Shown piece by piece: positions 7,977-11,595 of a DNA stretch of 22,445 nt. The notes beneath the pieces were generated by a model that made no database searches, was not told the DNA's origin, and saw nothing but the letters and a program-made list of their open reading frames with translations. How positions within the stretch are numbered: the stretch's first letter is position 1; every line of letters begins with the position of its first letter. Origin of the DNA: Opitutales bacterium (GTDB lineage Bacteria > Verrucomicrobiota > Verrucomicrobiia > Opitutales > UBA9783); NCBI GenBank assembly GCA_046881885.1, contig JBKSMP010000014.1, forward strand, positions 1-22,445, written 5' to 3'. A program made the position numbers and the translations under genes.

Positions 7977-8813
7977 CTATTTTATGCCGTATTGTTGGCC
8001 ATTAATTGCGATAGGACGAGATAATGTACCCTTTTGACGCATAGAATTTAGAAGTACTTTGGAAGCTTCATCTAAAAAATCTTCTGAAATTTTTATGGAT
8101 TTTAAAAAAGGAAGTCGGCAATCAATATGATTGTGCGTTTTTACAAATAGGTCTTGTAGAGATTTTAATTGAGAACAATGCTCAACTTCAAGTACTTCGA
8201 GCGCGGTTAATTGTAATAGAGGCTTTAGATTTTGTAGGTAAGTACTATTGCAACGAAGTGTTTGTAGGCTTGGTAGGGATAAATTTTCTGGAAATTGTGA
8301 GATAGGATTAAACGATAGGTCGAGCTTGGTCAATAATTTACTCGATTCGGTCGTCATGAATTGTTGAATTTGGTTGTGCGAGAGATTTAAGTCCTTTAAT
8401 TGCTCAAAATTACATAAAAAGGAGGCTTGTAGTTTATTATGGGACAAATCTAAGACTTCGAGTTTGGGTAATTGGCTGAGAATGGAAACATCCGTAATGA
8501 GATTATTCGATAGGAATAAGGTTTTTAAGCGTTTTAATGTGTTTAGCGGTGCTAGAGCGTCAATGAGGTTGTTTTTTAGAGATAATAACTTTAGGTTAGG
8601 TAAACACTCAAACCCTCTTAAATTCGAAATTTGAGCGTTGTCCGCTTGAAAAGACGTAATAGCCTCGAATTTTAAATTTTTGTTATTTGTACAGATGTTT
8701 TTAACGATTTTACGCGCATGCTGGTCGGCAAAAAAATGCCACGGTTCTTTTTGTTTATCGGCATGCGCGGTAGCCGCTATCGTTAAAAGCAACAATATAT
8801 TTTTAATTTTCAT
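7977..8813 (-). CDS. Secreted leucine-rich repeat (LRR) protein
   Basis: Sec-type signal MKIKNILLLLTIAATAHA|DKQ. Followed by about eight 22-residue LxxLxLxxNxIxD/S repeats (LPNLKLLSLKNNLIDALAPLNT, LKRLKTLFLSNNLITDVSILSQ, LPKLEVLDLSHNKLQ...). The start overlaps the upstream gene's stop (ATGA at 8810-8813). Confidence 0.8.
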   Translation of the reverse strand: MKIKNILLLLTIAATAHADKQKEPWHFFADQHARKIVKNICTNNKNLKFEAITSFQADNAQISNLRGFECLPNLKLLSLKNNLIDALAPLNTLKRLKTLFLSNNLITDVSILSQLPKLEVLDLSHNKLQASFLCNFEQLKDLNLSHNQIQQFMTTESSKLLTKLDLSFNPISQFPENLSLPSLQTLRCNSTYLQNLKPLLQLTALEVLEVEHCSQLKSLQDLFVKTHNHIDCRLPFLKSIKISEDFLDEASKVLLNSMRQKGTLSRPIAINGQQYGIK

Positions 8814-9466
8814 ATATTTTGTTCCATAAGTTTCAAAATTTCATTTGTTTTTGAAAGCAATTCTTGATTTTCTTCGCTTAAACAAGCGGTGTTATCAAGA
8901 ACTTCTTTAATTTTAAGAAGATATTCTTTTGCTTTATCTTTGTTGTTGCGATTCATTTCACAATCTGCTGCAAAAAAGTAAAGGTCGGGATCCTGTAAAG
9001 CATTAACGGTATTAGCATAAAACTCTGAAGCTTGCTCAGGGCCTTTTACTTCTTCAGTCGCTTTGCCAAGATATAAGTAAGGTTTTGTGTAAGTTGGACA
9101 ATAAGAAACAATAAAATAAAACATTGCATAAGCATCATTCCAAGTTTCATTTTCAAAAGCTTCTAGAGCATATTGCATCATGATATTGTAACATGCTTTT
9201 TTGCTGTTTTGTCCTAAATTTTTTTTGGATTTTATTTTTTGAAAATATTTTGCTAATAATTTTTTGTGGTCATAATTTTCAAAAATATGCAAAGCTTCAA
9301 TTAGTTGTTTTTTTACATCTGATAAATAGCGTTCCCAGAGAGGCTTTTGTTGTAATACTTTTTGTTCAAATTTATCATCTAAAATAATATTATTTTCGTT
9401 TTGTTGGCAGAGTTGTAACGCTGCTAATAATGTTGCTAAATTTGATTGAAAATTTGTTGTGTTCAT
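8810..9466 (-). CDS. TPR-like protein resembling class II type III secretion chaperones (SycD/LcrH/CesD type); function tentative
   Basis: 218 aa, helical. My hand alignment with remembered SycD/LcrH needs a single 1-residue indel. WNDAYAMFYFIVSYCPTYTKPYLYLGKATEEVKGPEQASEFYANTVNALQDPDLYFFAADCEMNRNNKDKAKEYL aligns with YEDAHKVFQALCVLDHYDSRFFLGLGACRQAMGQYDLAIHSYSYGAIMDIKEPRFPFHAAECLLQKGELAEA. It is a CDS with high likelihood; the functional call is only moderate. Confidence 0.6.
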   Translation of the reverse strand: MNTTNFQSNLATLLAALQLCQQNENNIILDDKFEQKVLQQKPLWERYLSDVKKQLIEALHIFENYDHKKLLAKYFQKIKSKKNLGQNSKKACYNIMMQYALEAFENETWNDAYAMFYFIVSYCPTYTKPYLYLGKATEEVKGPEQASEFYANTVNALQDPDLYFFAADCEMNRNNKDKAKEYLLKIKEVLDNTACLSEENQELLSKTNEILKLMEQNI

Positions 9467-9475
9467 AAAATTGCT

Positions 9476-10240
9476 TTAGTCTTCGTTTAGTATTTCATTT
9501 ACTAGATTTTGATTAATTCTATCTAATTCCAAATCTGATGGTCCTGAATCTGGTATACGGGTATCATCAACATCATCAATAACCTCATCATTATCAATAT
9601 TATTATCAATACTAGAGGAATCGTTGGTTGCTGTATTAGAAGAATTTGGACATTTTAAGGTATCTGGTATGTTTGTAGCAGTTTTTTCTTCTTGTTGTAT
9701 CTTGAAGGCTTTGTCAGTAAGGTCATTTAAAGCGTTGCGGGTATCTTTTAACTCTACAAATACTGTATCCAAATCTTCTCTTTTTTGACGTAAATCTGCT
9801 AAAAAAGGTATAGCTGCAGCACCACTTATACCAAAACCTAGAATTCCTCCTATAACAACACCTAAAAAACTATTTTTTAACGATGTTTTGACAATATTGT
9901 AAGTTATTTCTTTGGAAGTAAGTCCTTGTGCTTTACCTTCAACATTTTTTTTGTGAATAACACCTCCTGTACCTGCTACGAATAAAAGCCCACCAAGTAT
10001 CAATAAAGGAATACCTGCGGGTGCACATCCCATCGCGGATAAAACTACACCTCCGAAAGCTATACTTGCAGCTCCTAAACCTTGTGCTAAAGCACTTTTA
10101 TGAGTAAGTATAAACTTTTTTGCTTTATTAAAATAGTCTTTAATTGTCGTTGAAAAACTATCTTTTTTACTCTCGGTCTGAATATTAGAGATAGTAGTCG
10201 TATTAGGAGTATTGGTTATTGTAGTAGGATTAGGACTCAT
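9476..10240 (-). CDS. Glycine-rich multi-TM membrane protein, Inc-like/translocator-like, with an acidic C-terminal tail
   Basis: 254 aa with no Sec signal. The N-terminus is S/T/N/P/I-rich (MSPNPTTITNTPNTTTISNIQ). A bilobed hydrophobic block of about 47 aa (ALAQGLGAASIAFGGVVLSAMGCAPAGIPLLILGGLLFVAGTGGVI) is followed by a third glycine-zipper TM (FLGVVIGGILGFGISGAAAIPFL). Then come a coiled-coil-like segment and an acidic tail (DNDEVIDDVDD...). Confidence 0.7.
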   Translation of the reverse strand: MSPNPTTITNTPNTTTISNIQTESKKDSFSTTIKDYFNKAKKFILTHKSALAQGLGAASIAFGGVVLSAMGCAPAGIPLLILGGLLFVAGTGGVIHKKNVEGKAQGLTSKEITYNIVKTSLKNSFLGVVIGGILGFGISGAAAIPFLADLRQKREDLDTVFVELKDTRNALNDLTDKAFKIQQEEKTATNIPDTLKCPNSSNTATNDSSSIDNNIDNDEVIDDVDDTRIPDSGPSDLELDRINQNLVNEILNED

Positions 10241-10242
10241 AA

Positions 10243-10923: not shown

Positions 10924-10984
10924 AGTAATTATAGTATTACAAAAATAAGGGTTGATGGCAAGATTTTGTTTACTGTTAAAGAAA

Positions 10985-11566
10985 TCATTTTTCAGTTTGG
11001 AAAATTTTTGATATATATCGGGAAAGCTTTGGGTCTTTAACTTTGGTTATTAAGTCGTTTACTGTTTCATTGTCTATTGTCATAATTTTTGTTATTGTAA
11101 ATAATTGATTAACAAAATCTTTTACAGCTGTTTTGTCGTAGGTTGTATATTCTATTGAAGAGAAATATTCTTTGATTGTTGTTTCAAGAACCTCTTTAAA
11201 TGATTGTATGTCGTTTCTTTTTAAAAGCAGTGGTGTTCCGTTATTTGGAAAAGGTGGTAGACCTTGGGAGCTCTTAGGAGTGGAGGGCTTTCTGATATTT
11301 CTGCTGGGTTTGAGAAACTCAAGATAGGCTTGATGTATTAAGTTACCTCCTGTGATACCTGCTGTAAGCTTAGCCACAAAATCATCTATTGGGTTTGTTG
11401 TTTTTTTAACATCAGCTTGGTTTTTTTTGCTATCCCAAACGACTGAATAAGTTTCTTCAAATACAGAATTGTTTTCGATGAATTCAGAATTGTTTTCGGC
11501 AAAACTAGAATAATGATTGAAATTTAAAGCAATTACAGTTATTGGTAATAATTTAAGAATGTTCAT
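10985..11566 (-). CDS. Secreted hypothetical protein (paralogous 5' cassette copy B)
   Basis: 193 aa. Signal-peptide-like MNILKLLPITVIALNFNHYSSFA|ENN, a tandem ENNSEFI/ENNSVFE repeat, and a Pro/Ser/Lys-rich linker. No terminator before the next gene (61-nt gap). Confidence 0.7.
   Translation of the reverse strand: MNILKLLPITVIALNFNHYSSFAENNSEFIENNSVFEETYSVVWDSKKNQADVKKTTNPIDDFVAKLTAGITGGNLIHQAYLEFLKPSRNIRKPSTPKSSQGLPPFPNNGTPLLLKRNDIQSFKEVLETTIKEYFSSIEYTTYDKTAVKDFVNQLFTITKIMTIDNETVNDLITKVKDPKLSRYISKIFQTEK
11464..11498. repeat. Two copies of CAGAATTGTTTTCG at 21-bp spacing inside the 193-aa ORF
   Basis: Exact 14-mer at 11464-11477 and 11485-11498. It encodes the ENNSEFI/ENNSVFE heptad duplication. 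Confidence 0.85.
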
Positions 11567-11578
11567 ATCAATAAACGG

Positions 11579-11595
11579 AGCATATTTTGTGCCAA
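11579..11595 (-). promoter_or_regulatory. Candidate sigma-54 (RpoN) -24/-12 promoter, copy B
   Basis: The minus strand reads TTGGCACAAAATATGCTCC. GG (11593-11592) and GC (11581-11580) are separated by exactly 10 nt, as in the consensus TGGCACG-N4-TTGCW. 13 nt lie between the GC and the ATG at 11566. Confidence 0.55.

Follow-up and report, generated by a model that had tools for sequence, protein, structure and literature searches.

In type III secretion systems (T3SS), class II chaperones are tetratricopeptide repeat (TPR) proteins that serve hydrophobic translocators, and these chaperones, together with hairpin translocators, are treated as hallmarks of the injectisome (PMC13466201). The pairs SycD/LcrH-YopB/YopD, PcrH-PopB/PopD, IpgC-IpaB/IpaC, AcrH-AopB and Scc2/Scc3-CopB/CopD are among the described systems that come closest to a gene cluster that we analyze here in a contig of a metagenome-assembled genome of an Opitutales bacterium (JBKSMP010000014.1; the whole stretch of 22,445 nt is hereafter called the window; the eight window proteins looked up all occur in NCBI or Logan records, seven of them under MFQ6723161-MFQ6723168). 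The cluster lies on the minus strand, and its four core genes code for a mini-AsmA-like anchor (g2), a hairpin transmembrane protein (g3), a long-form SycD/LcrH-like TPR protein (g4) and an internalin-type leucine-rich repeat (LRR) protein (g5); two genes for secreted proteins, g1 and g0, stand upstream of them (Table 1). Literature searches turned up no description of this cluster, in agreement with an earlier sequence-only reading of the window that did not recognize the combination as any described system, and the four-gene cluster of uncultured gut-type Opitutales appears not to have been described before.

Like the chaperones of the class II pairs, g4 is predicted to be an all-helical protein with three TPRs, and its gene adjoins that of a protein with a hydrophobic transmembrane hairpin, a coiled coil and no Sec signal. 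Moreover, in one related locus (L010) two paralogous hairpin proteins flank the chaperone, recalling the two-translocator arrangement. There are also clear differences, as g4 bears about 100 additional N-terminal residues and falls far below the family cutoff, g3 is not similar to the SctE or SctB families, has its hairpin near the N-terminus and carries no P/VxLxxP motif, the g3 gene precedes that of g4, no injectisome genes lie nearby, and an AsmA-like and an LRR protein belong to the module. In the chlamydial Inc proteins, as in g3, a polar N-terminal stretch of about 50 aa precedes a bilobed hydrophobic domain (40-60 aa) and a variable, often coiled-coil tail; in addition, g3 evolves fast, and the organism that encodes it belongs to the Planctomycetes-Verrucomicrobia-Chlamydiae (PVC) superphylum. 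Nevertheless, this likeness is one of layout rather than of demonstrated sequence homology, and the bacteria in question are flagellated Opitutales rather than an obligate intracellular bacterium. To our knowledge, no Inc is paired with a dedicated TPR class II chaperone.

As for g2, it has the N-terminal transmembrane anchor and the subsequent AsmA-type, beta-rich N-terminal region of the AsmA-like/DUF748 proteins (AsmA, YhdP, TamB, YdbH), but the members of its family measure 221-263 aa compared with about 600-1300 aa or more, their genomic partners are different, and the AsmA-type fold of g2 is putative. Because of this length, g2 would be too short to span the periplasm alone. Finally, Fed and Cia of Campylobacter are non-flagellar determinants that are co-expressed with the flagellum. 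They resemble the cluster in that non-structural genes of a gut-associated bacterium stand under flagellar-type sigma-54/sigma-28 promoters or beside flagellar genes, possibly with use of the flagellar export gate, but they are not homologous to it, and co-expression would follow here from promoter motifs and gene neighbourhood alone.

Conservation and order of the core genes

We read the neighbourhoods of g2 and g4 homologues, about 20 kb each and roughly 250 kb in all, in related loci labelled L001-L018, of which 12 form the comparison set. In every complete related locus the core keeps the order g2, hairpin protein, TPR protein, LRR protein, and it does so across four neighbourhoods. It stands next to mraZ in the window, in L001-L009 and in L010/L011. 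In L001, L002, L003 and L005, where g2 is 68-85% identical, mraZ is followed divergently by g2, a hairpin protein in a coiled-coil version of 558-719 aa, the TPR gene and the LRR gene, while L008/L009 have the form seen in the window, with a short hairpin protein of 232 aa. L010/L011 come from a more distant genus (32-40% identity) and still keep the mraZ site, with both paralogous hairpin genes around the TPR gene. Elsewhere, the four genes come after a gene for a FliA/WhiG-type sigma factor (L014) or stand beside fliQ-fliR-flhB (L015), and in L018 the first three of them lie 2-6 kb from flagellin and fliS, the contig ending before the fourth. L012 (guanine-plus-cytosine content 47%) and L013 (37%) have just the hairpin-protein/TPR pair left, the two genes still adjacent. 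The hairpin gene is immediately upstream of the TPR gene in 13 of 13 loci, these two distant ones included, and the start-stop overlap of the TPR and LRR genes is kept in most. Judged by this synteny, to which L012 and L013 contribute, the conserved module is formed by four genes, g2-g5, and the hairpin/TPR pair is its oldest core.

The sequence-only reading had proposed a module of five genes. Its five minus-strand open reading frames (ORFs) and their spacing (gaps of 61, 2 and 9 nt, then a 4-nt ATGA overlap) agree exactly with the ORF list, and g2-g5 are co-inherited in the same order in the four neighbourhoods, but g1 stands outside the conserved set. The borders that it had described, a dead insertion element and the dcw genes, were likewise found: mraZ-rsmH-ftsI-murE-murF lie on one side, beginning at 12677, and on the other there are a peroxiredoxin gene, a remnant with an IS30-type helix-turn-helix (HTH) and a pseudouridine synthase gene. 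The accessory status attributed to the block nevertheless fails for the block as a whole, since the same site next to mraZ is occupied at 68-85% protein identity, and at 32-40% in the more distant genus; by sequence comparison, variation within it is confined to an internal cassette and the upstream slot. None of the components had been given a housekeeping assignment, and none was found to match an unrelated known pathway.

Word-index homologue searches, whether started from g2 or from the TPR profile, gave the immediate lineage only; a scan of a genome-contig collection gave one species representative, and one of metagenome contigs gave a single 1.5-kb fragment. Upstream of the hairpin/TPR pair of L012 (4040-9948) we observed a row of five helical, unannotated proteins (254-350 aa) that lack Sec signals; two are clear paralogues, and the row looks like an effector-type array.

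The TPR protein, the hairpin protein and their partners

The only significant NCBIfam match of g4 is to the LcrH_SycD family TIGR02552 (33.3 bits, E 3.4e-8), which its orthologues match with 31.6-42.7 bits and E-values down to 4.3e-11. With a 16-sequence profile, exhaustive searching by HMMER gave 88 cluster representatives at 50% identity, most of them of 200-260 aa, which define a "long SycD" family whose members keep a hairpin partner. TIGR02552 was matched by 64 of 70 members of this wider family (best E 1.5e-32), some of which also match SicA, SscA or SscB and a few, weakly, FlcA or MamA. When the profile of the 70 members was run against the PDB, SycD (1.5e-18), PcrH (1.3e-14), AcrH (5e-13), Scc3 (9e-13) and IpgC (5e-11) outranked all other natural TPR proteins. 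The AlphaFold2 (AF2) model of g4, with a predicted local distance difference test (pLDDT) score of 91 and a predicted template modelling score of 0.84, shows an N-terminal helical extension of about 100 residues, then three TPRs and a capping helix. In a Foldseek search of the PDB with this model, the top seven structures were SycD or PcrH (TM-score 0.71-0.80 on the target, root-mean-square deviation 2.2-3.0 Å), and IpgC, AcrH and Scc3 came after them, so that the three TPRs and capping helix of the predicted structure superpose on solved class II chaperones. The SycD-like character that had been read from the repeats of g4 is thus borne out by sequence profile and by predicted fold. We place g4 in a long-form sister group of the class II type III secretion (T3S) chaperones, which it resembles and to which it is related without being a member by the curated cutoff.

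The product of g3 has a polar N-terminus of about 50 aa, a Gly/Ala-rich bilobed hairpin (the Gly-rich hydrophobic residues 54-97 in the hydropathy profile), a third hydrophobic helix and an acidic tail, and it has no signal peptide. One layout is common to all 12 orthologues: the N-terminus is polar and lacks a Sec signal, the Gly/Ala-rich hairpin is bilobed, a short linker leads to a helix of amphipathic or hydrophobic character, and the tail ranges from 60 to 550 residues and is often coiled coil or repetitive. The hydropathy segments agree with the Inc/translocator-like layout that the sequence-only reading had ascribed to this protein, and its other descriptions (Sec N-termini, an AsmA-type protein, a Gly-rich hairpin without signal peptide, TPR and LRR proteins) are likewise in line with the family and hydropathy scans. 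Within the hairpin region, g3 and its long orthologues gave just weak matches to NheB (4.6e-4) and XaxA (0.04). In the 719-aa hairpin protein of L001 (9553-11712), a unit of about 39 aa (AVETVVNKLLSLESKDKASYQ...) occurs four times in tandem, so that the variation in tail length comes partly from repeat expansion.

The g2 and g5 proteins of L002 and L008 are 97% identical and their DNA across dcw is 97.4% identical, but the N-terminal region of g3 is only 22% identical and that of g4 39%. Homology at the DNA level ends just after g2 and restarts at codon 53 (L002) or 88 (L008) of g4. Similarly, between the window and L005, positions 10260-9329 are without DNA homology and the flanks are 82-86% identical. 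On the evidence of these alignments, g3 and the N-terminal 50-90 or so codons of g4 form a cassette that is swapped within a species. The ratio of nonsynonymous to synonymous substitution rates is 0.07-0.15 for g2 and g5 (about 0.1 for g2), which are under purifying selection, intermediate for g4 and essentially saturated for g3. Over 15 locus pairs, the identity of the N-terminal region of g4 tracks that of the N-terminal region of g3 (r 0.91), and the identity of its TPR part tracks that of g2 and g5 (r 0.88-0.94). Such co-variation fits a co-adapted chaperone-substrate pair. From the swap within a species we take g3 to be a target of diversifying selection, which makes it a candidate surface or injected antigen.

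Residues 25-158 of g2 match DUF748 co-linearly (E 1.7e-6; profile positions 27-159 of 1037), with a score below the full-length gathering cutoff of 50 bits, and weak DUF748 matches were also found in seven g2 orthologues. A further match is to the NCBIfam family LIC_11026 (E 7.8e-4), and searches of the PDB with two g2 profiles gave none. The AF2 model of g2, built from a 5-sequence alignment, has a strand-rich pattern and is too poor for a fold search (pLDDT 40). The LRR protein g5 matches LRR_4 (E 4.5e-23), in addition to internalin-type matches.

Promoters and the variable upstream slot

Upstream of g1, at 11595-11579 on the minus strand, stands the motif TTGGCACAAAATATGCT, in which the sequence-only reading had seen a candidate sigma-54 promoter. 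TGGCAC-N6-TGCT occurs twice in the window against 0.89 expected, which is not above chance there. As the criterion for a sigma-54 promoter we took GG-N10-GC within a TGGCAC-N5-TTGCW-like consensus that is conserved across orthologous sites. Every mraZ-linked locus has such a motif in its mraZ-proximal intergenic region, with conserved -24/-12 elements (TGGCAT in L010), a variable spacer and a fixed distance of 11-12 nt to the ATG. We take the motif as real because of this conservation across loci, not because of the count in a single window, and the candidate can be retained on that basis; that the promoter depends on RpoN is something we infer. The same layout, 13 nt from the ATG, precedes a flgF-like flagellar rod gene in L016 (19648). 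Neither an rpoN gene nor a gene for a bacterial enhancer-binding protein was found within the neighbourhoods of about 20 kb that we read.

The motif always lies 11-13 nt before an ATG that has no Shine-Dalgarno sequence, and this includes the flgF-like gene. A distance so short and fixed would therefore give leaderless or near-leaderless mRNAs, and its recurrence suggests that leaderless sigma-54 transcripts are a habit of the whole clade. We know of no leaderless sigma-54 transcripts described to date. Upstream of mraZ (window ~12612-12645, plus strand) there are direct repeats GTGGGG / TGGGG / TGGAG with 10-nt spacing, which resemble a MraZ operator. Their region is highly conserved across loci, and only about 50-90 bp separate them from the divergent sigma-54-like promoter, upstream of which they lie; a site for an enhancer-binding protein would be expected there.

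Behind g1 no terminator-like hairpin was found, as the sequence-only reading had noted. Its suggestion that all five genes are driven by the sigma-54 promoter is, however, doubtful, given that a sigma-70-like element stands right before g2 and is conserved: an element of the form CTTGCCAT, 17 nt and a TAATAMT-like box is kept before g2 in L001, L002, L003, L005 and L008, and L018 has a CTTGCCAT box at the matching place. To judge by these motifs, g2-g5 most likely have a promoter of their own, and read-through from g1 is possible in the window without being a conserved design. In L010 a tRNA-Phe gene on the opposite strand (8284-8359) separates g2 from an ORF resembling g1; the upstream ORF called in L011 (218 aa) spans tRNA sequence and is probably an over-call. 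A sigma-28 match inside g1 (window 11039) was discounted, as it is not conserved in L008. Two sigma-28-type elements were observed in other loci, one of them (TAAAG-N14-GCCGATAT) before an unannotated 347-aa gene of L016 (15865), the other a GCCGATAT box between the fliA-like gene of L014 and the secreted-protein gene that heads the cluster there (6649-6832).

The upstream slot differs from locus to locus. The g0 gene carries the second copy of the sigma-54-like motif and a terminator-like hairpin of its own, is alone in its 90%-identity cluster and is absent from every related locus examined. The g1 gene is absent from L001, L002, L003 and L005, and in L008/L009 the slot is filled by a 180-aa secreted protein. 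Beyond the signal-peptide region, no homology was detectable among the secreted proteins of the slot, and the weak similarity of g1 to its L008 counterpart lies mostly in that region. From these comparisons, g1 is the occupant of a variable slot of unrelated small secreted proteins that often stands empty. We rejected the idea that g0 and g1 are fragments of the long g3 forms, as they show no similarity to them, and likewise a reading of the cluster as a defence system, PADLOC giving no match except a weak and probably compositional one of g0 to SduA. In the four loci that lack g1, the sigma-54 motif is followed by a mere stub of 14-26 codons starting with MNIF... or MKFFKLLSI... (L001 8713-8846, L002 9863-10000, L005 9862-10000), which is apparently the remnant of a deleted signal-peptide gene and may act as a leader peptide.

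Explanations of the cluster and further features of the loci

The explanation that we tentatively favour, at somewhat less than even confidence, is that the cluster contains a SycD-type chaperone and its hairpin substrate, which is exported via a type-III-type gate, within a conserved envelope module that is co-regulated with flagellar genes. Here g4 would be a cytoplasmic TPR chaperone of the SycD/LcrH type with an extra N-terminal helical domain, which would bind the N-terminal or hairpin part of g3 and keep this hydrophobic hairpin in a soluble state fit for export, in the way that translocators are served by class II T3SS chaperones. The g3 protein would leave the cytoplasm through the export gate of the lineage's flagellar apparatus or of an injectisome encoded elsewhere, insert in a target membrane and expose its rapidly diversifying coiled-coil tail, and the Sec-dependent g2 (anchored in the inner membrane) and g5 (periplasmic or secreted) would be the invariant envelope and target-binding parts. 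Expression would be tied to the flagellar programme through the flgF-type sigma-54 promoter and, elsewhere, through sigma-28/fliA, fliQRflhB or fliC/fliS neighbours, with the upstream slot supplying interchangeable small Sec-secreted proteins on leaderless or near-leaderless sigma-54 units.

Several observations weigh against this explanation. No injectisome-specific gene (secretin, SctN, SctV, SctJ or needle) was seen in the roughly 250 kb of related DNA that we read, and the fliQ/fliR/flhB genes by L015 score higher on flagellar than on Sct models. The P/VxLxxP motif occurs in none of the 12 g3 orthologues within the first 190 residues, the translocator families SseC, IpaB and YopD were not matched by g3 or by four long orthologues at E-values up to 1-5, and the TIGR02552 scores of g4 and its orthologues are far below the trusted cutoff of 104.8 bits. 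The order of g3 before g4 is the reverse of that in lcrH-yopBD, proteins of the g2 and g5 types have no known role in T3S, and the argument from flagellar neighbourhoods draws on three loci. Furthermore, g3 is physically adjacent to the N-terminus of g4, so linkage alone could explain their co-swapping. The fliQ/fliR/flhB genes were considered as injectisome genes and rejected as such on their higher flagellar scores, their relatives, which are annotated as FlhB across Opitutales, and the context of a close relative near flgF/flgG in L016; for the same reasons we regard the clade as flagellated. Small ORFs in L015 were also rejected as needle or needle-chaperone genes, as they have no family matches and two of them carry Sec signals.

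Alternatively, g3 might not be secreted at all and reside as a hairpin protein in the inner membrane, its coiled-coil tail in the cytoplasm with g4 as TPR adaptor or scaffold and g2 (AsmA-like, of the lipid-groove type) and g5 on the periplasmic side, in a complex for envelope or flagellum-associated biogenesis that might supply lipids, assist the motor or collar, or form a structure at the division site, given the neighbouring dcw genes. TPR proteins are common accessories of flagella and envelopes, and a few of the TPR family members weakly match FlcA or MamA; the fixed place next to mraZ/dcw in two genera, the recurrence near flagellar genes, the Sec and transmembrane targeting of g2 and g5 with their strong purifying selection, and the lack of injectisome genes in the DNA read would all suit such a complex. 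A housekeeping scaffold, on the other hand, is not expected to show 22-36% identity and lengths spread over 190-719 aa between strains with flanking genes 86-97% identical, the TPR domain resembles class II T3S chaperones and not generic TPR proteins in both the hidden Markov model and the fold ranking, and the hairpin-TPR pair also occurs without g2 and g5, away from dcw and flagellar genes. We regard a resident complex as the main rival, somewhat less likely than the favoured explanation. Even further from explaining the locus is the notion of unrelated lineage-specific ORFs, five of them, packed tightly by chance without a shared function. No protein of the cluster has a characterized function and, within the one window, the motif is no more frequent than chance allows, as this notion would have it, but the same four families stand in the same order in four contexts down to 32-40% identity, the TPR/LRR start-stop overlap is retained in most loci, and g2 and g5 are under purifying selection; we regard it as extremely improbable, and the synteny as effectively having refuted it.

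The injectisome-specific version of export of g3 with g4 as its chaperone would follow the chlamydial example, with g3 as an Inc/translocator-like substrate of a scattered injectisome, destined for a eukaryotic host membrane, and g4 as its Scc2/Scc3-like chaperone. Chlamydiae are the sister phylum within the PVC group. The Inc layout of g3, the presence of Scc3 among the sequence and fold matches of g4, and a gene for a class I chaperone of the CesT/SicP type 3 kb from the cluster in L015 (Pfam CesT 8e-15, SicP 1.8e-17) are consistent with this version, as is the scattered distribution of the chlamydial T3SS genes; a non-flagellar T3SS has been reported in Verrucomicrobia (PMC3459982), and in C. 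trachomatis the T3S effectors and membrane proteins are reported to be under sigma-54 control (PMC7482065). Yet the DNA read contains no Sct-specific gene, the organisms retain flagella, genes for peptidoglycan synthesis, glycogen synthase and further functions of a free-living or extracellular life, the LRR partner is dependent on Sec and not on T3S, and the host is hypothetical. We judge this version to be unlikely. Equally improbable to us is the contrary proposal that these flagellated Opitutales have no injectisome and that a hairpin membrane protein with a SycD-type chaperone passes through the type III export gate of the flagellum itself. Such a translocator and class II chaperone on a flagellar T3SS would be either a relic of the flagellum-to-injectisome transition or an independent exaptation; the AsmA-like and LRR partners would then make up a new device of the envelope or for contact with a host, while the g3/g4-N cassette would diversify under host or phage pressure.

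In this clade of uncultured Opitutales, a long-form relative of the class II chaperones is locked to a hairpin protein of Inc-like layout, along with an AsmA-like anchor and an LRR protein, and flagellar genes are all the T3S machinery seen in the vicinity. Export of the pair, if it occurs, would give an initial means of learning how gut Verrucomicrobia other than Akkermansia make contact with host cells or with their neighbours, and it would bear on the origin of translocon components relative to the flagellum (PMC3459982).

Table 1. Features of the cluster and its surroundings, in window positions.
Feature	Position	Strand	Remarks
Sigma-54-like promoter, copy 1 (TTGGCAC-N6-TGCT)	12550..12566	-	12 nt before ATG of g0
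g0, 281 aa, Sec signal, helix-rich secreted protein	11692..12537	-	ORF list and family scan; outside the conserved core
Terminator-like hairpin after g0, 11-pair stem then U-run	11632..11672	-	-13.9 kcal/mol, z -2.3
Sigma-54-like promoter, copy 2	11579..11595	-	12 nt before ATG of g1
g1, 193 aa, Sec-type N-terminus, secreted, variable slot	10985..11566	-	ORF list
Sigma-70-like promoter (TTGCCA, 17 nt, AATACT, extended TG)	10933..10961	-	directly upstream of g2
g2, 226 aa, mini-AsmA-like: N-terminal transmembrane anchor and beta-rich DUF748/AsmA N-terminal region	10243..10923	-	
g3, 254 aa, hairpin transmembrane protein, hypervariable	9476..10240	-	
Hypervariable cassette, g3 and first ~46 codons of g4	9329..10260	-	DNA comparison with L005
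g4, 218 aa, long-form SycD/LcrH-like TPR protein	8810..9466	-	
g5, 278 aa, Sec-signal internalin-type LRR protein	7977..8813	-	start overlaps g4 stop by 4 nt
Insertion sequence (IS) remnant, 79-aa ORF	6871-7110	-	IS30-type HTH_38 domain, E 1.5e-6; sole leftover of the IS element

Beyond the cluster, a remnant that resembles an IS30-like DDE element by eye lies upstream of the genes in L015 (~3500-4000). On the plus strand of the window (3957-5476), a divergent FtsZ/tubulin homologue of 376 aa (Pfam Tubulin 2e-18; 77 bits on TIGR00065 ftsZ, whose cutoff is 295) has a 4-nt overlap with a 130-aa protein with a prepilin-type N-methylation domain. This FtsZ-like/prepilin pair also directly adjoins the LRR gene in L014 (11580-13237) and may be loosely linked to the cluster. 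At the edge of the contig (window 74-1717, plus strand), a 547-aa ORF with a TTG start gave no Pfam or NCBIfam match, and positions 1-1500 of the window have a strongly positive AT skew.

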